Shown: in pieces, positions 6,199 through 23,483 of the stretch
How positions within the stretch are numbered: the first letter of the stretch is position 1
Layout of the letters: each line of letters opens with the position of its first letter
IMG/VR virus record: IMGVR_UViG_3300045988_180211
Location: 1-46,960 of that record
Source of the DNA: a virus
Length of the DNA: 46,960 nucleotides
Direction: 5' to 3' (one strand)
The notes under the pieces: model-generated
The model's database searches: none
What the model was told of the DNA's origin: nothing
What the model saw: the letters and a program-made list of their open reading frames with translations, nothing else
Program-made: the position numbers and the translations under genes

Positions 6199-6549
6199 AT
6201 GAAAAACACAACACTTGTGTCTGCCGTCTACCGCGTGATTGTCAGCTTCCGCGGTAGACGGTTTAGCGTTTGCGTGCGCCGTTGCATCGTAAACGGAGAA
6301 GTCAACACCACCGCCGATGTTGAAGAGGTTGACCCCGCCGGTAAAGCGCAGGGCAGTTCCCTCAGCATCTCCATCGGTACCGAGCCCCTTGCGTGTCGGG
6401 ACGAAAAAAGCGCAGGTGCATTAAAGCGCGTGCTTCGCGCCATTGCCTTGCACGCCGTTAAGGGGTTTTACTTTGACCGCCACATGGAGGGCGAACAGAC
6501 AGCCCGGTGGGCGCAATCGGCGGATGAGCTGGCGCAGGTGATGCGCTAG
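6199..6549 (+). CDS. Hypothetical protein (last plus-strand gene before the convergence point)
   Basis: ATG at 6199 is preceded by AGGAGGA. The track start at 6172 is a TTG without an SD. Confidence 0.5.
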   Translation: MKNTTLVSAVYRVIVSFRGRRFSVCVRRCIVNGEVNTTADVEEVDPAGKAQGSSLSISIGTEPLACRDEKSAGALKRVLRAIALHAVKGFYFDRHMEGEQTARWAQSADELAQVMR

Positions 6550-6554
6550 CGTTT

Positions 6555-6577
6555 GGGGCGCGGTAGAGCCGCGCCCC
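6555..6577. terminator. GC-rich stem-loop between convergent genes (possible bidirectional terminator, no clear U-tract)
   Basis: ggggcgcgg-tagag-ccgcgcccc forms a perfect 9-bp stem. Confidence 0.5.
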
Positions 6578-6582
6578 TCAGC

Positions 6583-6777
6583 TCATTCTTCTTTGAGGCA
6601 CTGCTTCGCATACCAAATTGCTTTCCAGCAATCTTTCACAGTGCATACGTCCTCGTGCGACAAAAAGCGCGCATCCTTCGCCTCGTCGAGCACCTTGTCG
6701 ATTTTCTCAAGCATAGCGTGGATGGTTTCCTCCGCGCGCACGCGTCCAAGTTCCTTCTGATCCATTTCAGTCCCCAT
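6583..6777 (-). CDS. Hypothetical 60-64 aa protein (last gene of the com-like cassette)
   Basis: Co-oriented with and abutting the upstream gene. The alternative ATG at 6765 has a better SD (GGGGA). Confidence 0.5.
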   Translation of the reverse strand: MGTEMDQKELGRVRAEETIHAMLEKIDKVLDEAKDARFLSHEDVCTVKDCWKAIWYAKQCLKEE

Positions 6778-7102
6778 GTTTCTGCATGATGTCTTTGAGC
6801 TTTTCTAGGTCTTCCCGATCAACCCGATAGCCCAGGATGGTCGGAGTGCCTTTCTCCATCGCCTTTACAGCCTCGCCGTAGAGCAGTTCGATGTCGAGCT
6901 TCCCCTCAGCGTCCACGACTCCCAAAGCTTGAAGCGCCGGCAGGTGCTGGGTCACCAGCTCCGGGGCGCGCCTTGCGATGAGACCGCCGATGAACGCCGT
7001 GGCGAAGGGCGCTGCCCCGCCCGCCGCCGAAGCGGCAGGCAGAACAGCCGACGAGAAAAACTCCGCGATGACCGCGGGCAGATTCCCGATCGGCATCTTC
7101 AT
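6767..7102 (-). CDS. Hypothetical 111-aa protein with hydrophobic Ala/Gly-rich N-terminal half
   Basis: SD GGAG lies 7 nt upstream. The start is 2 nt after the upstream stop. The N-terminus reads NLPAVIAEFFSSAVLPAASAAGGAAPFATAFIGGLIA. Confidence 0.6.
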   Translation of the reverse strand: MKMPIGNLPAVIAEFFSSAVLPAASAAGGAAPFATAFIGGLIARRAPELVTQHLPALQALGVVDAEGKLDIELLYGEAVKAMEKGTPTILGYRVDREDLEKLKDIMQKHGD

Positions 7103-7104
7103 GG

Positions 7105-7728
7105 CTAGCTCCGCTGAACCTTGACCGTGCCGCTAATCGGCTGAGTAGCAGGCGCGGTATCAGTCGCCGTCGGAGCCGTCCACGAGTTGTACCGCGGCAT
7201 GACGGGCGGACAGATGACGGACTGCGGGACGATCGTCTGAGTGATGCCGTTCACCGTGTTCTGCAACGCGGCAATGGCCGCAGAGTTCTGACTGATGCCG
7301 CAGTTGCAGGCCTGCGCAACGGAGTCGATGCGACCGCCCAGTTCACTGCGCACGAGCTTCTCGCGCAGGTCGGCAATCTCAGCGTTCTTGGACACGTTGG
7401 TTTCAAGAACCGCGATGCGCTCACGATTCGCCGCGGCCTCCGCGGATAGCGGGCGAATGAATCCCATCAGCTCGTCACGAAGCACTTTATTTTCAGCGCG
7501 CGAAGCAACGTAGACTTCGGAATCCTTGTTGTCCGAATACTTTTCCGCACGAAGGTTGGCGTTCTCGGCCATCAGTGCATTCAGCTGGTTGCAGTTGCCG
7601 CCACCAAGAATGCCACCGAGAATACCGCCGTTCCCGTTGTTTGCGGAACCGAGGAAACCGAGGGAGCCCAGTACGAGGGCGGGGATGCCTACGCCGTTGG
7701 CGAGGCCTTTTGTGGCAAATTCACCCAT
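7105..7728 (-). CDS. Hypothetical 207-aa protein: Gly-rich hydrophobic N-terminus, coiled-coil middle, Cys/Pro-containing C-terminus
   Basis: The SD AAGGAG lies in the loop and the AUG in the stem of a perfect hairpin. Sequence segments: GIPALVLGSLGFLGSANNGNGGILGGILGGG, then LRAEKYSDNKDSEVY, then CNCGISQNS...IVPQSVICPP. Confidence 0.7.
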   Translation of the reverse strand: MGEFATKGLANGVGIPALVLGSLGFLGSANNGNGGILGGILGGGNCNQLNALMAENANLRAEKYSDNKDSEVYVASRAENKVLRDELMGFIRPLSAEAAANRERIAVLETNVSKNAEIADLREKLVRSELGGRIDSVAQACNCGISQNSAAIAALQNTVNGITQTIVPQSVICPPVMPRYNSWTAPTATDTAPATQPISGTVKVQRS

Positions 7729-7748
7729 AGCAAACTCCTTTTGCTATG
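7726..7748 (-). promoter_or_regulatory. Translational-control hairpin: SD in the loop, start codon of the 207-aa gene in the 3-prime arm, com-like stop codon in the 5-prime arm
   Basis: The mRNA (minus strand) reads CAUAGCAAA-AGGAG-UUUGCUAUG: a perfect 9-bp stem with a 5-nt loop. Confidence 0.7.
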
Positions 7749-7923
7749 GAACTCGAGGTTCTCTGGATTGTGCGCTCGCTTGGCGCTGATAGGTGGGCTC
7801 AGGGGCCCTTGTGACTGCGACCACGGTCTTGCACCGTGGGCATTTGATTACGATTGTCCCGGACGAACCCGGGGCGAAGTCGAAGAGACGGCGCCCGCAA
7901 CGCGGGCAGTTTGCTTTTTCCAT
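7744..7923 (-). CDS. Com-like zinc-ribbon protein (Mu Com family pattern)
   Basis: MEKANCPRCGRRLFDFAPGSSGTIVIKCPRCKTVV compares with Mu Com (C..C.kLLF......I.I.CPRCK). SD GGAGGAAG is present. The start was trimmed from 7977 to 7923. Confidence 0.75.
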   Translation of the reverse strand: MEKANCPRCGRRLFDFAPGSSGTIVIKCPRCKTVVAVTRAPEPTYQRQASAQSREPRVP

Positions 7924-7963
7924 CACACTTCCTCCCCAATGGGCGGAAGAAAAGGTAAACCGC

Positions 7964-9067
7964 CTAGGGCCCGTCATTCGTCAAAGCGTCCGCCCAGGCC
8001 TGCATGACCTTTCGTCTTTCCTCCAGCATGTCGCTACGAAAATACGCGCTCGTAACCTTGTTTCCCCAATGATGGCCGAGCGCTTTTTCCGCCACGGCGT
8101 CCGGCACACCCGTATCCGCACACCAATCACGGAAGGTGGATCGGATGCCGTGGACCGTCACCTTCGGCTCACCCTCCGGGCGCTGGCAGATGTCGCGGAA
8201 CGCATCGAGCAGAGTCGACGCAACGACAGCGCCGCGCGTCACGCGGCTGGGGAACAGAAGTCGGTCGGGATCCGCGCCGTCGCCCACTGCCTCCAGTGCC
8301 AGCGAGGACAAGGGCTTGCGAAGCGCCGCCGACTCGCGAGTCTTGATGTGCTCCGGGGGCACGAGCCACGTGTCGTCCTTGATTTCTTTCCCGAGGGCGA
8401 GCCGCGCTTCGCTGACGCGGCAGGCGTTTGCGATGGTGAAGAGCAGGATACGCGCAGAGGGGCTTTGCCGCTCGCGCAGACTCGCCACCGCTGCGCGGAG
8501 TTCCTCCATCGTGGGGGCTTCCCGATGCTTCGTCGTGTGCGCCTTCGCCACAGGCGGCAGAAACAGCGCAAGATTCCCGCGCCACGTGGCGGGGTTGTGA
8601 GTGACGAAACCGCGCGTGATCGCCCAGTTGAAAACCGCTTCGAGCTTTTGCTGAAGGTCGGCGGCGGTCTCAGTCTTCATCATCCATAGCGGCTTGACCA
8701 CGGCGAGCACGTCGTCGCGCCCGATGGACGCAAGCGGCATGTCCCCCAGCACAGGCATGGCGAACCGCTCGATCTGTGACGTCCAAACGGATCGCGTCGT
8801 GGCTTCATTTTTCCACTGGCGGATGAGCGCGATGTCGTCGAGGGCTTTGTGGCAGACGTCGCCGAAAGTCATTTCGTCCGGGCGCTTCGGTTGCTCCGTT
8901 GTCAGGACTTCGGCCGCTTTGAATTTCGCTTCTTTGATCCCCATCTGATCAGCGCGGCCAAGCGAGCGCTCGATGCGCTTGCCGCCCACGGTGCCGCGAA
9001 ATATGTAGTACGATGAGCCCCCACGCGTATATAGGTAGAGGTTGTCCGAGACCTTTTTCTTTTCCAT
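7964..9067 (-). CDS. int: Tyrosine recombinase/integrase (P4-type with DUF4102-like N-domain)
   Basis: C-terminal HGIRSTFRDWCADTG...ALGHHWGNKVTSAYFRSD carries the R..H.R...Y catalytic pattern. The N-terminus reads LYLYTRGGSSYYIFRGTVGGKRIERSLG. ATG at 9067 has SD GGAGAG. Confidence 0.9.
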   Translation of the reverse strand: MEKKKVSDNLYLYTRGGSSYYIFRGTVGGKRIERSLGRADQMGIKEAKFKAAEVLTTEQPKRPDEMTFGDVCHKALDDIALIRQWKNEATTRSVWTSQIERFAMPVLGDMPLASIGRDDVLAVVKPLWMMKTETAADLQQKLEAVFNWAITRGFVTHNPATWRGNLALFLPPVAKAHTTKHREAPTMEELRAAVASLRERQSPSARILLFTIANACRVSEARLALGKEIKDDTWLVPPEHIKTRESAALRKPLSSLALEAVGDGADPDRLLFPSRVTRGAVVASTLLDAFRDICQRPEGEPKVTVHGIRSTFRDWCADTGVPDAVAEKALGHHWGNKVTSAYFRSDMLEERRKVMQAWADALTNDGP

Positions 9068-9090
9068 TCTGCTCTCCGTTGAGGGGGTGG

Positions 9091-9349
9091 TGTTCCCCAA
9101 AGTGTTCCCCGATTTCCCCGCGAGTTTACCGTAAATCACGGTGGTTCGTCGAGAGCGGAGTAGAGTTGATCAGAGATAACAAGAGGATAAAAGTCTTTTT
9201 AAAACAACGCACAACTAGCGTAACGGCGTATCAGCTGGCTCTGGCGTAGGGGAAACACTTATTTCCTAATTGGAAATCTCAGTTCCTGAAATTGCAGGGC
9301 TTCGCGCGGGTTGTTCCCCTGATTGTTCCCCGAAAAAAATCTGTTCCCC
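9091..9349. other. Probable attP: clustered TGTTCCCC arm-type repeats flanking an ATTTCC-TAATT-GGAAAT core-like palindrome
   Basis: TGTTCCCC occurs at 9091, 9103, 9312, 9324 and 9342. There is a degenerate ATTTCCCC at 9112 and an inverted near-copy, GGGGAAACA, at 9249. The palindrome is at 9261-9277. The region lies immediately upstream of int. Confidence 0.5.
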
Positions 9350-9376
9350 AAAAAGAAAACCCCGCGTTTGCGGGGG
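9350..9376 (-). terminator. Rho-independent terminator (second of a tandem pair downstream of the P63C-like gene)
   Basis: Stem ccccgc-gttt-gcgggg. An A-run on the plus strand gives a U-run on the minus transcript. Confidence 0.6.
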
Positions 9377-9389
9377 CTTTGTGTGGTAC

Positions 9390-9411
9390 GAAAAAGCCGC
9401 CCGGAGGCGGC
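9390..9411 (-). terminator. Rho-independent terminator of the P63C-like gene
   Basis: Stem gccgcc-cgga-ggcggc, followed on the minus strand by TTTTT. Confidence 0.7.
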
Positions 9412-9429
9412 TCAAAAAAGAATTAGAGG

Positions 9430-10392
9430 TTAAGAATTCGGCTCCAAGGGCAGTGTCATTTGACCGCCAAATCGGTCGACAATCTTTTGTTCGTACTCTT
9501 CCCTGGTTTGAGATGATTCGGCCATCTCCAAAACTCTGCCAAGCTGGAAACGAAGCGCCTTGGTGCCGATGTCGCTCAGGAACTGGAACAACTTCTTGTT
9601 TGTGCCGGTATCGTGACTGTGTTTTTGTTCTCGTAAGAGCTTCAAAATTCTCCCGTTGCTTTTTGCCAACGGCGTGTATACATGAGCGATTGTGAGAGAC
9701 TTGAACTTCCATGGCCAGCCGCGCTCAGGCATAGGAATGTCATACAGTCGCGTCCATTCCTGATACAACTCTATTGGGAATTCGCTTTCGTATCGTTTTG
9801 CCTCCTCTTGAACAAAGCGTCGGAAAGCGATCAGGAATTGTTCTTTGGTAGAGTCAAGTCCAACAACCTTGTAAATAAGTTCCTGAATGCCTAGCTTTGC
9901 GCAAGCTCCAGTGATAATCGTTGCGGCTCGAATGAGGTGTTGTTGGTTTTTTGTGAGCTTCCCATCCTCGTTGGCCTTGATGATCGCTCTGCAAACGTCT
10001 ATAAGGATCGTCACGTCGTAGCCGTAGACCTCAACTTCGGGGCCATTGAGGGAGCTCTGAAATACAAGGGGTTTTTGAACTTTTTTAGAAAGTTCCGGCC
10101 CAGCATAAGCGCTTATTGTTTTCCCGCTCATGAACCGAATAAAAGCGGTTCCGCCGCCCCCCATCAACCCCAACGCTACTGCCACTCCTCTCTGGCTTAT
10201 GACGGCGGTTCGATTATCGTCGTTCAGGACGTAGCAATCGACATCAACCCCCAAGTCCTTCTGAAGGTTTCCGAAATACAGCGCTTTCAGATGCCGATAT
10301 TGAGCTGCTTTTCTAGCGATTTCGCTTCTATCTTTCGGAGTCAGAGATTTTGCTCTTGCCTTTCCTCCTTTTGATTGTTTTGTGTCTTGCAT
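9430..10392 (-). CDS. P63C-domain-like protein (function unknown), low-GC cargo gene
   Basis: N-terminal KGGKARAKSLTPKDRSEIARKAA and C-terminal FPIELYQEWTRLY...TIAHVYTPL...FQFLSDIGTKALRFQLGRVLEM match my memory of the P63C pattern. About 47% GC against about 58-60% for the genome. ATG at 10392 chosen; the track start at 10434 is a TTG. Confidence 0.6.
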   Translation of the reverse strand: MQDTKQSKGGKARAKSLTPKDRSEIARKAAQYRHLKALYFGNLQKDLGVDVDCYVLNDDNRTAVISQRGVAVALGLMGGGGTAFIRFMSGKTISAYAGPELSKKVQKPLVFQSSLNGPEVEVYGYDVTILIDVCRAIIKANEDGKLTKNQQHLIRAATIITGACAKLGIQELIYKVVGLDSTKEQFLIAFRRFVQEEAKRYESEFPIELYQEWTRLYDIPMPERGWPWKFKSLTIAHVYTPLAKSNGRILKLLREQKHSHDTGTNKKLFQFLSDIGTKALRFQLGRVLEMAESSQTREEYEQKIVDRFGGQMTLPLEPNS

Positions 10393-10540
10393 ATAGATAC
10401 CACATGAATTAAATACATGTGCAAATTCTAGCAAGCATTCGAGAAAATATCTTGCTTGCTAAAAAATTGCCCAATATAAGCGCAAAGCCCGAGTGTTCCA
10501 GACTTGAAGAGAGTGCGAAAAAGCCGCCCGGGGGAGACCC

Positions 10541-10576
10541 AAAAAGAAAGAGCCCCTGACATGGTCAGGAGCCCTT
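10541..10576 (-). terminator. Rho-independent terminator of hicAB
   Basis: The minus strand reads agggctcctgac-cat-gtcaggggctct followed by ttctttttggg. Confidence 0.7.
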
Positions 10577-10604
10577 TCAGTGTTCGTTTCGAAGGGACGA
10601 TGAG

Positions 10605-11102
10605 TTATGCAGAAGAAACAGAAACGTTCAGCTGGCGGTTCAAAGCATAAAGGGCTCGGGCAATAGTGTCAATTTTGGTCGCATGATGCAGATCGGTTAT
10701 GCGATTGACCTCTTGTCGAGAAACGCCCAATTTTTTGGCTAGGTCGACGGGGCGTGTCTTTGTTTCGACCATAGCATTTAAGAGCAGGACTTTAGCGATG
10801 ACGGAAGGAGGCAATTCTACGATTAGGTCTTCTGGGGAAGCGCTGGATGGGTTAGGGAACGGACGCTGCTCTTCGATGTAAAAATCGATGGCTGTAATAA
10901 GTGCGTCCAGCGCGTTAGCTTTAAGTTCCTCCATGGTGGCTGCTTCGGTCAAAGCTTCAGGGACATCCTTGAAGGAAGCAATAAATCCGCCATCGCCGTT
11001 CGGCTCAACTTGCGCGGGAAAGCGGAAAGCAGACGACACGGCAAATTTTCCTTTTCTTTTTCCGCTGATGATATCGAGGGGGAGCCACCCCCCTCGGTTC
11101 AT
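10605..11102 (-). CDS. hicB: HicB-family antitoxin with C-terminal XRE-type HTH
   Basis: FRFPAQVEPNGDGGFIASFKDVPEALTEAATMEELKANALDAL is the HicB fold pattern. The C-terminal DLAKKLGVSRQEVNRITD is an HTH. The gene starts 13 nt after the hicA stop. A GTG near 11040 with an AAGGA SD is an alternative start. Confidence 0.8.
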   Translation of the reverse strand: MNRGGWLPLDIISGKRKGKFAVSSAFRFPAQVEPNGDGGFIASFKDVPEALTEAATMEELKANALDALITAIDFYIEEQRPFPNPSSASPEDLIVELPPSVIAKVLLLNAMVETKTRPVDLAKKLGVSRQEVNRITDLHHATKIDTIARALYALNRQLNVSVSSA

Positions 11103-11114
11103 CAAACGAACTTG

Positions 11115-11294
11115 TTAACTAGGTAACCCAAGTTGTCTTTTGATCTTCTTTGCGAACGCGTCGGAGATCTCTTGGCTTGGGTGCCGCGGGCAAGTGGCTT
11201 GCTTGCCTTTGTAGTAGAGCTTGAGGTGGCGGGTGCCGTTCTCAATCCTTACCCCTGCGGCCCTTAGTTCGTCGATGAAGGTTTTATGCTTCAT
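11115..11294 (-). CDS. hicA: HicA-family mRNA interferase toxin
   Basis: MKHKTFIDELRAAGVRIENGTRHLKLYYKGKQATCPRHPSQEISDAFAKKIKRQLGL. SD GAAGGAG lies 6 nt upstream. Trimmed from the track start at 11366. Confidence 0.85.
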   Translation of the reverse strand: MKHKTFIDELRAAGVRIENGTRHLKLYYKGKQATCPRHPSQEISDAFAKKIKRQLGLPS

Positions 11295-11322
11295 AGGCAT
11301 CTCCTTCAAAACGAACACTGCA

Positions 11323-11351
11323 ACTGTACACATATTTGTGCACGTTGTCAA
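11323..11351 (-). promoter_or_regulatory. Sigma70-type promoter of hicAB overlapping an imperfect palindrome (likely HicB operator)
   Basis: The minus strand reads TTGACA-17 nt-TACAGT. The spacer and -10 contain tgcacaaatatgtgtaca, which is 14/18 self-complementary. Confidence 0.65.
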
Positions 11352-11464
11352 CAAAAATGATTGCAAAAGTCTCGCTGGGGCGGCTTGGTGATTAGTTCAG
11401 AAGGAAGGCCGCCGCCTGCGCAGTACCCTACGCTTGCACACATCACAGACGGCGGCCGAAGGGG

Positions 11465-11695
11465 TTACGGGTGGGGAGGCTCTGGCAACTCTGCCCAGGC
11501 CGTGACACACCAGCCCTTATCAGTGCCATCCCAGTCGAGCAACAAAAAGCGGCCAGCATCTTTGTCGAAAAAGTCAACATCGATCCGCGGACGCTCGATG
11601 GTGTCGCCGTAGTCATGCGCTGTGATCAAGTAGCGTCCGTCATCAGGAGGCAGTTCTTCCGGATACTTATGCCATACGGTTTTCGTCTCGCTCAT
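11465..11695 (-). CDS. DUF551-like protein
   Basis: WHKYPEELPPDDGRYLITA...WCVTAWAELPEPP. ATGA overlap with the upstream gene. Confidence 0.7.
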   Translation of the reverse strand: MSETKTVWHKYPEELPPDDGRYLITAHDYGDTIERPRIDVDFFDKDAGRFLLLDWDGTDKGWCVTAWAELPEPPHP

Positions 11696-12321
11696 GCCTC
11701 ACTCCCTGTTTCCGCTTTCTGATAGGGGGCTGGAAGTTCTGCCCACGCAATGACCGTGAACTCTCGTTCGTAGCCCCAAAAATCACCCCGGCCATAGGCC
11801 ATCCTTACGTAAGGCTTTTTGTTATCGCCAAAGACCGGAACCGCCGTCACGAGGTAGAGCTGCCAAAATTCAGTCTTGGGTAGTGGGACATCCGGATAGG
11901 GGTGCCAAGTCGTCATGTCGTGTCCTCCAGTAAAGCCCCGCGGATGCGAGACTTCCTTCAGTGATTGAATCGTCTTTCCCAGGTGAATGAGGCAGGCGTA
12001 AAGCGCCGGCTTGTCGCCGTGGTCGCAGGCGAGCACGATTTCCGTCACGAGGGGGTGGCGAAAAGAGAAAAGGAGGGATGAGAAATTGTCGGGGCGCCGA
12101 ACGATCTGCGCCTTGCACTCTTCGACGGAGAAGGTTTCCGCCATGCGGCGAAGATACCACTCGGCCTTTTGAAGGTCTTCCTTCTCACCCCCCTTGTAGG
12201 GCGCTCGAAGCAGGTACTTGACGGCATTGCCCAAGCAGAAGCTCAAAAGCTCAGTCAGCTCGATCACCTCATGCTCATAGTGCTCGGCGTAGTGCTGGGG
12301 GTGATTCACCATGTCTTTCAT
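11692..12321 (-). CDS. DUF3310 (SaV-like) N-domain fused to a DUF551-like C-domain
   Basis: VNHPQHYAEH...GNAVKYLLRAPYKGGEKEDLQKAEWYLRRM is the DUF3310 pattern. The C-terminus is TTWHPYPDVPLP...VIAWAELPAPY. SD GGAGG is present. ATGA overlap with the i-spanin stop. Confidence 0.75.
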   Translation of the reverse strand: MKDMVNHPQHYAEHYEHEVIELTELLSFCLGNAVKYLLRAPYKGGEKEDLQKAEWYLRRMAETFSVEECKAQIVRRPDNFSSLLFSFRHPLVTEIVLACDHGDKPALYACLIHLGKTIQSLKEVSHPRGFTGGHDMTTWHPYPDVPLPKTEFWQLYLVTAVPVFGDNKKPYVRMAYGRGDFWGYEREFTVIAWAELPAPYQKAETGSEA

Positions 12322-12731
12322 TTCACGGCCTCCGCGAGGGCGTCGTGCTTTTGGGCGCACCGCTCAAAACCGTCTCCGCATCTTGAAGCAGCTTCAGCCA
12401 TTCGGCTGACCAACTTTTCGAGTTCGGCAACTCTGGCTCCAAGAGCTTCGACGGAATTTCCCGCTCCGGCATCGGCACCTGCGTGGCGCAGCCTGGCAAG
12501 CAGGCGATCACGCTCAGCGCGCAGACCGTTGTACTCATCTTGCGCAAGAAGAATTGTGTTCGTTGCATTTGCAAGTCCTTTGTTTCGTTCGGCCTGTATC
12601 TTCTCGATGGCTCTCGCCTGCTCGGCCTGCATCTGCGCAATCCGCCGACCGTAGTGGCTGTTGTCCACATAGCCCACCACGATGCCGGTCAGGACACAGC
12701 TGCCGACCAATACGATCGTGCTCCAGTTCAT
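12318..12731 (-). CDS. i-spanin (Rz-like; N-terminal TMD plus coiled coil)
   Basis: MNWSTIVLVGSCVLTGIVVGYV is followed by helical, Ala/Arg/Glu-rich sequence. ATGA overlap with the endolysin stop. Trimmed from 12812. Confidence 0.7.
   Translation of the reverse strand: MNWSTIVLVGSCVLTGIVVGYVDNSHYGRRIAQMQAEQARAIEKIQAERNKGLANATNTILLAQDEYNGLRAERDRLLARLRHAGADAGAGNSVEALGARVAELEKLVSRMAEAASRCGDGFERCAQKHDALAEAVK
12323..12568 (-). CDS. o-spanin (Rz1-like lipoprotein) embedded out of frame in the i-spanin gene
   Basis: MQRTQFFLRKMSTTVCALSVIAC-LPGC-ATQVPMPEREIP has a signal peptide with lipobox VIAC (or LPGC) and a Pro-rich mature part. SD AAGGA lies 7 nt upstream. Confidence 0.65.
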   Translation of the reverse strand: MQRTQFFLRKMSTTVCALSVIACLPGCATQVPMPEREIPSKLLEPELPNSKSWSAEWLKLLQDAETVLSGAPKSTTPSRRP

Positions 12732-13189
12732 GCCTGGCCTCGGAAAAACGCTTCTTCGCGAGCACGGCGCCTCACCAGACCTTCGAGCACCTTGCCATTG
12801 CAGAATCGCCATTTGTGGAACTCGTTCGCGGCGAGGTCTTCATGGCCGGCGTTGAGGTGCTTTAAAAGTGTGGAGATTCTCAGCCTGGCGGCACCGAGAT
12901 TGAAACAAAAATCCAGGAGGGCGATGAACTGCCCGCGGGTGACGGGCACGGTGACATAGCGTCGCATCTGCAGTTTGAATTTCTCCAAGTCCTCCGTCAG
13001 CAGGCGATCGGCCTCCTGCTTGGTGACGCGTTCGCCCAGGCGCACGCCGCCTGTGTGCCCGTAGCCAATGGTTGGCACGCCCGCAGGGCAGAGATACGCC
13101 TCAAGTTTGAGACCCTCGAATTCTTTCACGAGCGGTGCCGCGAGCACGGCTTCCCACTGGGAAAACTCACGCTTCTGGTTTGTCGTCAT
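12728..13189 (-). CDS. GH24 (T4/lambda-type) lysozyme endolysin
   Basis: LVKEFEGLKLEAYLCPAGVPTIGYGHTGG carries the catalytic Glu context. It lies between the holin and the spanins. Confidence 0.9.
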   Translation of the reverse strand: MTTNQKREFSQWEAVLAAPLVKEFEGLKLEAYLCPAGVPTIGYGHTGGVRLGERVTKQEADRLLTEDLEKFKLQMRRYVTVPVTRGQFIALLDFCFNLGAARLRISTLLKHLNAGHEDLAANEFHKWRFCNGKVLEGLVRRRAREEAFFRGQA

Positions 13190-13508
13190 TTACAGTATCC
13201 CCTTTGAGCTTTCGGAAAAAGAGCGCGCGCAAAATATCAAAGACGCGGGAGCCGATGTTCCCGACGACCGCCGATGTGCACGCGGCAAAGCTTTCCGGTT
13301 GGTTCAAATCCATCACCACCCAAAAGGCCATGAGGCCGAGGAAGGCGCTGATGAGCATGTCTGAAAAAAACGTGAGGGGGCTGAACGGCTTGCAAAGCAT
13401 GTTGCTCTCCTTCCATCTTGCGAATGCGCCGAGCAGAGCCGCGGCGGCGGCAATGATTGGCATCCAAGAATCCGGCGTTTTGTAAGGCATTGGTGTCTCA
13501 CTGATCAT
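13167..13508 (-). CDS. Putative holin (multi-TMD small membrane protein)
   Basis: Hydrophobic segments WMPIIAAAAALLGAF, LISAFLGLMAFWVVM and FAACTSAVVGNIG, with a charged C-terminus. It overlaps the endolysin start. Confidence 0.6.
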   Translation of the reverse strand: MISETPMPYKTPDSWMPIIAAAAALLGAFARWKESNMLCKPFSPLTFFSDMLISAFLGLMAFWVVMDLNQPESFAACTSAVVGNIGSRVFDILRALFFRKLKGDTVNDDKPEA

Positions 13509-13827: not shown

Positions 13828-14280
13828 TCAAAGTTTTCTTTCGATTCCCTGCCGTCCCGCTTTCTTTGCCCAGCGATTAAAGGCAAGGCGGCAATCGTTT
13901 CGCCCGTGCAAAAACCAGCCCGCCGCCATGAGGATGACGTGCAGGCGCTCGTCAAGTTCGAGAAGCCGCAAATACGGACGGTGGTCGCGGAACTTCTGAG
14001 GAAGCTGACCCCACACCTGCGCGGCGATAACGCCGGCATCCAGACCGGCGTTCCGTCGGGAGCAATAAAACGTCGTGCGGCCTGCAAAGGCCACACTGAT
14101 CCGCGTGCCACGAGACTGAGCCCAGGCGCGGATCACCTTACAGGCGTACGAATACGGCCTGCCGTATTCGTCCCCCAGCATGCCGGCGAGCATGCTGATG
14201 GGCGCCCAGCTTTCGGCCGCCGCGTCAAGGCGAGCGAACATGGCGACCGTCTTGGGTTGTGGTCCACCTTTTCTGCTCAT
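13828..14280 (-). CDS. Hypothetical protein (early/replication operon)
   Basis: ATGA overlap with the upstream gene. Same strand as all neighbours. Confidence 0.6.
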   Translation of the reverse strand: MSRKGGPQPKTVAMFARLDAAAESWAPISMLAGMLGDEYGRPYSYACKVIRAWAQSRGTRISVAFAGRTTFYCSRRNAGLDAGVIAAQVWGQLPQKFRDHRPYLRLLELDERLHVILMAAGWFLHGRNDCRLAFNRWAKKAGRQGIERKL

Positions 14281-23437: not shown

Positions 23438-23453
23438 AAGTCGAAAAGCTGAA

Positions 23454-23483
23454 AGCCACTGGAAGCGCCAGTGGCTTTTTTTA
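23454..23483. terminator. Terminator hairpin shared by the convergent 22030 cassette and the repressor gene; the U-tract is clear only on the plus strand
   Basis: agccactgg-aagcg-ccagtggct followed by ttttttt. On the minus strand the hairpin is followed by only tttc. Confidence 0.8.

Follow-up and report, generated by a model that had tools for sequence, protein, structure and literature searches.

A probable Mu com/mom-type translational switch before a conserved three-gene phage module in a BPP-1-like podovirus

Introduction

The best described system close to the locus reported here is the com-mom operon of phage Mu. The locus was found on the minus strand, at positions 6583-7923, of the virus record IMGVR_UViG_3300045988_180211 in IMG/VR. 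The whole stretch that was analyzed, i.e., positions 1 to 46,960 of that record (46,960 nucleotides, nt), is called the window. The locus is composed of a com-like zinc-ribbon gene and three following genes, named A, B, and C. It is probably a Mu com/mom-type translational activation switch placed before a conserved three-gene phage module, as judged from sequence comparison and RNA folding.

The RNA target of Mu Com was defined by SELEX and footprinting, which gave the bipartite consensus NGAGNNCC(N)2-3GAGNNCCNN (PMC6483171). The target has a C-G closing pair and an accessible GA. The Com site is just proximal to, and partly overlaps, the translation inhibition structure, in which the mom start codon is located (PMC6483171). 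The Mu sequence shows AUGC[CUGCGA]GCAU (loop in brackets) just 5' of the inhibitory stem, inside the com 3' end.

The com-like genes are also placed upstream of methyltransferases in FluMu and Pnm1 (PMC3299994). In Pseudomonas, they are placed before llpA, further bacteriocin genes carried as tailocin cargo, and the gene of a lytic enzyme of a tailocin (PMC6240691). Com homologues stand directly before such different and potentially harmful genes, which shows that Com gates are portable. The downstream genes at all of these loci are unrelated to A-B-C. No leader RNA structures are described in the sections of the Pseudomonas work used here (PMC6240691), whereas the target hairpins and their covariation can be laid out in the window. 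Beyond Mu, translational activation of the Com type is known chiefly from patterns of gene neighbourhood. The placing of com-like genes before non-mom genes was already known; the target module and a clearly resolved, covarying multi-hairpin operator are new.

The locus in the window resembles Mu com-mom in three points. A homologous four-Cys zinc ribbon of about 60 amino acids (aa) with a disordered tail is encoded, the com gene is directly upstream in the same operon with its 3' end reading across the target sites, and a C-G-closed CC(N)2-3GAG hairpin abuts a stem that has the start codon in its 3' arm. The differences are also clear. The target in the window is neither Mom nor a DNA-modification enzyme, three tandem Com-type hairpins are present against the single 19-mer target hairpin of Mu, the start codon is AUG against GUG in Mu, and the com gene does not overlap the target open reading frame (ORF). 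Moreover, the window is the genome of a BPP-1-like podovirus, probably with a Sutterellaceae host, and not of a Mu-like transposable phage.

Com-like zinc-ribbon gene

The genes of the locus are as follows.

7744-7923, minus strand: com-like gene, 59 aa, MEKANCPRCGRRLFDF...IVIKCPRCK
7105-7728, minus strand: gene A, 207 aa
6767-7102, minus strand: gene B, 111 aa, start 2 nt past the A stop
6583-6765, minus strand: gene C, 60 aa from MDQKEL (the start common to homologues), or 6583-6777 with 64 aa; helical

The first-pass annotation of the window had assigned the 59-aa ORF to the Com zinc-ribbon pattern, and this assignment was confirmed by homology to Mu Com in PHROG and hhalign searches. The predicted protein has a four-Cys zinc ribbon (C6, C9, C28, and C31) and a disordered tail. 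In the PHROG search, it matched phrog_6417, i.e., 'translational regulator' (E 2e-11), and also phrog_13819, i.e., 'gpCom' (E 4.8e-4). Eleven distinct com alleles were gathered from related contigs and aligned. The four Cys, R12, F14, and D15 are invariant among them. The profile of the eleven alleles was compared with the Mu Com sequence taken from the annotated Mu genome, and hhalign gave a match with a probability of 96.3% (E 1.9e-9, 32 columns) that covers the C..C....LF...I.CPRCK core. By these alignments, the upstream zinc-ribbon protein is homologous to Mu Com.

The com-like gene is upstream of gene A and co-oriented with it. The RNA sites that its product is predicted to target are covered by its 3' end. 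Between the com stop and the A start codon, the spacer is 15 nt, and not 13 nt as first counted.

Start-codon hairpin and Com-type hairpins

Four hairpins were located in the leader of gene A.

7725-7749, minus strand: translation-inhibition hairpin CCAUAGCAAA-AGGAG-UUUGCUAUGG, perfect 10-bp stem, 5-nt loop
7749-7761, minus strand: Com-type hairpin 3, GAAC[CUCGA]GUUC, within GAGAACCUCGAGUUCC (7763-7748)
7772-7786, minus strand: Com-type hairpin 2, GCGC[CAAGCGA]GCGC, 7-nt loop with first C and last GA
7795-7808, minus strand: Com-type hairpin 1, GGGC[CCCUGA]GCCC, C-G closing pair, loop C..GA, i.e., CC(N)3GAG

A hairpin with the Shine-Dalgarno sequence in its loop, the start codon in its 3' arm, and the com stop in its 5' arm had first been read with a 9-bp stem. 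Folding reproduced this structure and lengthened it, since the core CAUAGCAAA-AGGAG-UUUGCUAUG (7748-7726) gains one C-G pair to give 10 bp (7749-7725). The Shine-Dalgarno AGGAG (7739-7735) forms the loop, the AUG of gene A (7728-7726) sits in the 3' arm, and the com UAG (7746-7744) sits in the 5' arm. The hairpin on its own has a free energy of -11.8 kcal/mol, comparable to -9.5 kcal/mol for the Mu inhibitory stem folded likewise. It is retained in the minimum-free-energy fold of its 101-nt context (z = -2.74), and the probability that the AUG of gene A is unpaired was 0.00. In the 47-kb window, three distinct perfect hairpins of at least 10 bp with a 3-8 nt loop were found, against 0.4 expected from dinucleotide shuffles, and one of the three falls exactly on the gene A start codon.

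The RNA just 5' of this stem reads A-GAG-AA-CC-UC-GAG-UU-CC-AU (7764-7746), which is an exact fit to the SELEX motif of Com, and the 16-mer GAGAACCUCGAGUUCC is the exact bipartite motif, GAGNNCC-N2-GAGNNCC. On both strands of the window, three matches to the motif were found, against 0.275 expected. Hairpin 3, which lies within this 16-mer, abuts the start-codon hairpin, and its terminal C (7749) is common to both. Isolated Com-type hairpin forms occur elsewhere in the window at chance level (7 against 4.35 +/- 2.1 expected), whereas a cluster of them was found in this leader only. No Rfam family was assigned to the leader in a scan of 6400-9500.

Comparison of leaders across relatives

Homologues of gene A were collected by protein search, from IMG/VR, GTDB genomes, and metagenomes, and by look-ups of the encoding contigs. 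The loci preceded by com fall into 11 allele types, with A identity of 62-100%, and all of their leaders carry two or three Com-type hairpins. Among about 22 leader types without com, none carries Com-type hairpins. The AUG is sequestered (probability unpaired at most 0.02) in 9 of the 11 com-bearing types, vs one com-less type.

The arms of the start-codon stem differ from type to type, i.e., CCAUAGCAAA/UUUGCUAUGG, CCAUGACAA/UUGUCAUGG, CCCAUGAC/GUCAUGGG, and CCCAUGAUUUC.../GAAUGUCAUGGG, with free energies of -10 to -13 kcal/mol. Compensatory changes in relatives turn AUAGC/GCUAU into AUGAC/GUCAU. The three Com-type hairpins vary in a similar manner. In hairpin 1 of the com-bearing relatives, the outer pair covaries (A-U, G-C, and C-G), and the loops are CAACGA, CCCUGA, and CUCUGA. 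The stem of hairpin 2 is near-invariant, with one C-G to U-A replacement among 15 leaders, and the middle triplet of its loop is freely variable (AAG, GGU, GCU, AGC, GUU, and AAC). The stem of hairpin 3 covaries between GAAC/GUUC and GAGC/GCUC, and its loop variants CUCGA, CUUGA, CUUCGA, CAUCGA, CACGA, and CUAGA all retain CC(N)2-3GAG. Over the hairpins, the loop bases are free to vary except for the first C and the final GA.

Covariation was tested on an alignment of 15 leaders with the four helices imposed and 500 shuffles. In this alignment, 90.1% of the cells were paired. Eight pairs were changed on both sides, against 3.6 +/- 1.2 in the shuffles, none of which (0/500) reached the observed number. 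The covariation score was 0.202 against 0.092 when shuffled (0/500), and at most 0.067 when the partners were slid.

These results bear on the explanation that the hairpins are incidental, or act in RNA stability, processing, or termination, and that the zinc ribbon is an unrelated DNA-binding transcription factor. Small zinc ribbons do match many unrelated Pfam families at similar weak scores, and many hairpins form in GC-rich genomes. However, no U tract is present 3' of the start-codon stem, the stems covary, and the motif agrees, at the position expected from the start codon, with a SELEX consensus that was derived independently. The restriction of the cluster to this leader, with only isolated forms at chance level elsewhere, also speaks against it. 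This explanation is considered extremely improbable.

Variable com stop and a possible trans-acting reader of the loops

The distance from the com stop to the A start codon differs by type, i.e., 15 nt in the window, and 31-35, 41, 57-59, and 114 nt in the others. The window has CAG at 7788-7786, which lets the com ORF reach the stem, and the L004 type has TAG at this place, so that its stop is 57 nt before the AUG. A single C/T difference moves the com stop here, and the leader is otherwise the same. The leader hairpins are therefore kept whether they are coding, as in the window, or non-coding, as in the L004 type. In two independent contigs, L036 (831-964) and L037, all three loops have GU and not GA, and the com allele is divergent, with KCQRCGS for KCPRCK. 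This looks like a coordinated shift of operator and regulator.

Hairpin-mediated translational coupling is a well-known mechanism, and it offers an explanation in which only cis effects are needed: ribosomes that translate com would open the hairpin and re-initiate 15 nt downstream, and the zinc ribbon would have no RNA role. The com stop of the window, inside the stem and with a 15-nt spacer, would suit such coupling. However, the position of the stop is not conserved, since in the other alleles it is 31-114 nt upstream. Coupling in cis also gives no account of the three conserved Com-motif hairpins, of the coordinated GA to GU change, or of the upstream ORF always being a Com homologue. As the sole mechanism, it is highly unlikely. 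The variable position of the com stop means that melting of the stem by ribosomes would be only a lineage-specific addition in the window, and the first-pass proposal that com translation opens the hairpin does not hold as a general feature. A trans-acting reader of the loops is argued for, because the hairpins are kept whether coding or non-coding and because the GA to GU change in L036 and L037 stands beside a divergent com.

Several observations weigh against a Com-type switch and have to be set beside this evidence. In the family search, the Com-like protein of the window scored 19.5 bits on Pfam PF10122 (Zn_ribbon_Com), under the gathering cut-off of 22.9, which sets it apart from Mu Com, and only 2 of the 11 com alleles matched this family at E <0.01. 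The 7-nt loop of hairpin 2 falls outside the published N2-3 spacing. Two com-bearing types, L038 and L046, have only a weak start-codon stem (probability unpaired 0.40). In L017 (3645-3942), a frameshift separates the two Cys knuckles of com, and both the leader hairpins and the stem on the start codon have stayed intact; the split com reflects either an error of sequencing or the decay of the regulator. Every locus with com comes from a single clade of Sutterellaceae-type phages, so the association of com with the hairpins is phylogenetically confounded. Finally, coding constraint on the Com tail (the APEP motif, at hairpin 1) could be behind part of the conservation of hairpins 1 and 2.

Proposed switch

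A switch of the Mu com/mom type would work as follows. The leader of gene A would fold into the 10-bp hairpin that buries the AUG, and A would stay untranslated. B and C would probably be silenced too, through translational coupling across the gaps of 2 nt and 1 nt. The upstream gene would supply the Com-like zinc-ribbon protein of about 60 aa. This protein would bind the three hairpins 5' of the inhibitory stem by their C-G closing pair, C...GA loop, and CC(N)2-3GAG sequence. The proximal hairpin has one nucleotide in common with the inhibitory stem, and binding may shift the equilibrium so that the start site opens. In the phage of the window, ribosomes that end at the com UAG in the 5' arm would also melt the stem, which would add coupling in cis.

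A gate in the style of Mu com/mom had been proposed from the letters of the window. It is supported, at the level of sequence and comparison, by Com homology, the three Com-type hairpins with their match to the SELEX motif, and the conservation and covariation of the four hairpins over 11 alleles. From these we infer RNA binding and translational activation by the Com-like protein.

The expectation that homologous modules would keep the gate came out in part. The hairpins and com are kept in the 11 com alleles, whereas homologous cassettes outside the clade of Sutterellaceae phages lack both the hairpin and the zinc ribbon. The gate is therefore a clade-specific add-on and not intrinsic to the module.

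Proteins of the A-B-C module

No named family had been recognized for the three proteins at first sight, and the database searches agreed. For A, B, and C, no Pfam, PHROG, NCBIfam, or PADLOC family was found, and no similarity to Mom or methyltransferases. The family searches gave no holin, antiholin, or spanin match. A search of 76 diverse A homologues against Pfam and PHROG returned only scattered coiled-coil noise.

Protein A has a Gly-rich, weakly hydrophobic N-terminus (residues 9-44), with a borderline Kyte-Doolittle 19-residue maximum of 1.60. AlphaFold2 left the N-terminus unstructured and modelled residues 46-162 (about 117 residues) as a single helix, with a predicted local distance difference test (pLDDT) above 90. 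No consistent heptad register was found over this helix. A conserved C-terminal motif, VP..ICPxxMPRYNSWTAP, comes before a Thr/Ala/Pro tail. Against PDB sequences, the A profile matched coiled coils only, and the best match, 9cuy 'short tail fiber', was weak (E 0.0027). Foldseek of the A model against BFVD had no significant match, and one long helix can tell little in such a search anyway. In these two comparisons, A had no confident structural match to a virion or lysis component.

Protein B was modelled by AlphaFold2 as a compact, mostly helical protein (pLDDT 84, predicted template modelling score 0.73). Foldseek of this model found nothing in the PDB below E = 1. In BFVD, only uncharacterised phage proteins were found, including the crAss-like cr108_1 and cr118_1. 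Gene B is always 3' of A in relatives, and the ATG of gene C is 1 nt past the B stop.

Holin T of T4 and the antiholins RI and RIII are associated with lysis. Of these three proteins, the first has about 200 aa, with a single membrane segment at the N-terminus and a large domain at the C-terminus, the second has about 100 aa and is weakly hydrophobic at its N-terminus, and the third is helical and small, with 60-80 aa. The products of A-B-C may be compared with them purely by size and architecture, with no similarity in sequence or fold. A difference is that the window already encodes a LydA-type holin, and B is modelled as a compact helical globule and not as an anchored domain.

Three other candidates were tried and rejected or set aside. 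Protein A is like a spanin in its N-terminal hydrophobic segment, its long Cys-bearing helical region, and its place after the endolysin gene in relatives. However, an Rz-like gene with Rz1 embedded in it is already present in the window and relatives, and the A family is found in prophages of Clostridia, Gram-positive hosts with no outer membrane; a spanin was excluded on both grounds. The Gly-rich N-terminus, long helix, and two small downstream genes prompted the idea of a colicin-like toxin with immunity and lysis proteins. It was set aside as unlikely, since the C-terminal part of A has only about 45 residues, and B and C vary while A is 97-100% identical, which is contrary to the covariation of a toxin with its immunity protein. 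B and C as fibre-tip chaperones were also rejected, since B/C alleles and fibre-tip genes assort independently.

Unusual forms of A were seen in two settings. In the metagenomic protein P0267 (1369 aa), a complete A sequence is fused at the C-terminus of a large HExxH-containing protein, which may come from read-through in gene calling or point to recoding of a stop codon in the phage concerned. In L003, i.e., Bacteroides phage DAC22 (3794-4495), a single in-frame TAA splits the A homologue between its Gly-rich N-terminal and coiled-coil parts, and GenBank shows two short hypothetical ORFs at this place. The tblastn matches in DAC16, 19, 20, and 23 begin at the same query point, consistent with the same TAA interruption. 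The interrupted gene of DAC22 could be a split gene, a read-through case, or a pseudogene.

Distribution and neighbourhood of the module

The protein search found 793 homologues of gene A, in 300 clusters at 50% identity. The blastn search of the region against GenBank phages gave no match, and tblastn matched nothing but faecal contigs without annotation and hypothetical proteins of Bacteroides DAC phages. A, B, and C are kept together down to 23-30% identity of A, in contigs with a GC content of 27-60%. The module was found in Sutterellaceae-type phages, in genomes of Clostridia, Ruminococcaceae, and Anaeromicropila, in unannotated faecal phages, and in the plaque-isolated Bacteroides thetaiotaomicron phages DAC16-23.

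The most constant neighbours of the module are genes for distal tail fibres or tail spikes and for DUF4376 or XkdX proteins. The module is positioned where the lysis, integration, and tail-fibre regions meet, and in every case it either converges with the distal tail-fibre genes or comes just after them. In the close relatives L004-6, of which A is 97% identical, com-A-B-C directly follows a holin, an M15 endolysin, and a spanin gene, with no integrase gene (int) nearby. A holin gene is directly downstream of the module in L022 (Phage_holin_4_1) and L023 (Phage_holin_3_3), and an Amidase_3 gene is upstream of it in L025. The linkage to lysis genes is not universal, the exceptions being L001, L030, and L031. 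By its sequence conservation and gene order, A-B-C is an old, widely conserved phage module, usually at the tail-fibre/lysis junction.

The B and C alleles were exchanged independently of A. Between the window and the L004 and L075 types, A is 97-100% identical and B and C are about 50% identical. The breakpoint of this exchange is at 7058, at the A/B junction (6583-7058 in the window, 10671-11144 in L004, and 4467-4940 in L075). L004 has the fibre-tip genes of the window but different B and C, and L075 differs in both. In two distant loci of Firmicute type, L025 (3623-3904) and L026 (492-803), a small gene with a helix-turn-helix (HTH) of the sigma-70 region 4 (sigma-r4)/LuxR type sits directly upstream of the module, where com sits in the window. 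From this, it seems that the module often receives a regulator of its own.

The constant neighbourhood with fibre genes raises the question of a virion component. Here A would be a fibrous coiled coil, B and C would be assembly factors, and the gate would set stoichiometry or timing. Next to the neighbours, the prediction of A as a single helix and its PDB match to a short tail fiber would agree with this. However, that match covers the coiled-coil stretch only and is likely compositional, the Gly-rich hydrophobic N-terminus is atypical of fibre proteins, and the helix has no consistent heptad register. The B/C alleles are independent of A and of the fibre-tip genes, and the com-bearing phages transcribe the module against the tail genes and along with lysis or int genes. 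A role in the virion or tail fibre is thought unlikely.

The reading favoured over the others for A-B-C, which is tentative and no better than possible, is an accessory role late in infection that is directed at the cell envelope and tied to the lysis/tail-fibre end of the late region. Protein A would be membrane-associated at its N-terminus and harmful if it is made untimely. The first-pass proposal of a harmful or membrane-active effector is thus a reasonable one.

Genome of the window and the integrase side

An exact 55-bp direct repeat was found at the window termini (1-55 and 46906-46960), and the alignment of prophage contig L075 is continuous from the window end into the window start. 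Because of these two findings, the window is taken as a complete circular phage genome of about 46.9 kb. The phage type is a BPP-1-like podovirus, with Bbp16, Bbp19, GP7, and a T7-like portal in relatives. The host is likely in Sutterellaceae, as suggested by a 75%-identical module in the Duodenibacillus massiliensis genome. The features around the locus are as follows.

6555-6577, minus strand: GC-rich 9-bp hairpin GGGGCGCGG-CUCUA-CCGCGCCCC, read from the sequence, directly 3' of gene C
7964-9067, minus strand: tyrosine integrase (Pfam Phage_integrase and Phage_int_M), directly upstream of the com-like gene and co-oriented
9375-9360, minus strand: intrinsic terminator from the terminator scan, just beyond attP (about 9271)
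9430-11366: low-GC (48%) cargo block adjoining attP, with a P63C-domain protein, a HicB-like antitoxin, and a HicA toxin
within 9430-11366: P63C-domain protein, 334 aa, low-GC
10605-11105: HicB-like antitoxin gene
11115-11366: HicA toxin gene
11692-12360: DUF3310 gene, just past the low-GC cargo block
12318-12812, minus strand: Rz-like i-spanin gene
embedded in the Rz-like gene in the +1 frame, minus strand: Rz1-like lipoprotein ORF with the lipobox LPGC
12728-13189, minus strand: phage lysozyme
13167-13508, minus strand: LydA-type holin

The hairpin at 6555-6577 has no U tract and was not called by the terminator scan; it may mark the transcript 3' end. The canonical lysis cassette of the window (12318-13508, minus strand) is on the same strand as com-A-B-C and 4.6 kb upstream of it. 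The DUF3310 gene, HicA/HicB, the low-GC P63C gene, the terminator at 9375-9360, attP, and int are placed between the lysis cassette and com.

The prophages L075 and L076 run from a host gene through attL, int, and com to A-B-C. Their homology to the window breaks at position 9271 (L075 2210-2458), and attP is therefore on the far side of int; the first-pass annotation had placed it beside the cassette. The prophages adjoin a host gene for an RlmI-like (PUA/Methyltrans_SAM) methyltransferase, and no transfer RNA gene was found at this junction.

The side of the integrase is the basis of another explanation, in which A-B-C is a moron, i.e., cargo for lysogenic conversion, superinfection exclusion, or anti-phage defence that is placed by int and attP and expressed from the prophage. 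The same cargo role had been suggested at first for the cassette. Its point of departure, the adjacency to int, is real in the window and in some relatives: besides the order in L075 and L076, int adjoins the cassette in L041, L046, and L021, being downstream of it in L021-type phages. In one prophage of a Firmicute, the phage elements end with the module, and the host cotJ genes follow. In L031, com-A-B-C is an island of opposite orientation between the structural operons. The swapping of B and C alleles independently of A would also suit a moron.

The cargo role is supported only in part. The unit is conserved over a deep divergence of A identity and GC content, unlike typical sporadic morons. 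It is present in the plaque-isolated DAC phages, and B-like folds are present in crAss-like phages. PADLOC gave no match for com, A, B, or C. In the close relatives, the module continues the holin-endolysin-spanin operon with no int nearby, and in other lineages it adjoins tail-fibre, holin, or amidase genes. A translational lock with a co-transcribed activator would suit late lytic timing over constitutive prophage expression. A moron role is considered quite unlikely.

The other two of the three perfect hairpins of at least 10 bp in the window were also located. The hairpin AAAGCCACUGG-AAGCG-CCAGUGGCUUU followed by UUUUU at 23452-23478 is a textbook bidirectional terminator between convergent genes. 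The hairpin at 14148-14171 is inside a coding region.

Implications

The Com recognition code becomes directly testable, specificity swaps included, with the comparative series described here. It offers eleven alleles of com, three hairpins in the operator, stems that covary, and a lineage in which GA became GU in all loops. Such experiments are feasible, since the cultivable Duodenibacillus massiliensis Marseille-P2968T holds a related com-A-B-C prophage.

The module itself has hundreds of sequence clusters in human-gut phages, with no annotation, PHROG, or structural relative. Since the module stands behind a translational lock, its timing or dose would seem to be important for the phage. 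A broader proposal, which is somewhat unlikely as it stands, is that A-B-C is a widespread gut-phage module that acts late on the host envelope as a new system of lysis timing or envelope disruption, with a harmful A and with dedicated regulators acquired independently in different lineages. If this is true, the regulator would be a Com-type switch with a three-hairpin operator in Sutterellaceae phages and a sigma-r4/LuxR-type HTH protein in some Firmicute phages. The module would then be shared by phages of Sutterellaceae, Bacteroides, and Clostridia, and possibly by crAss-like phages, with an architecture analogous to T/RI/RIII of T4.

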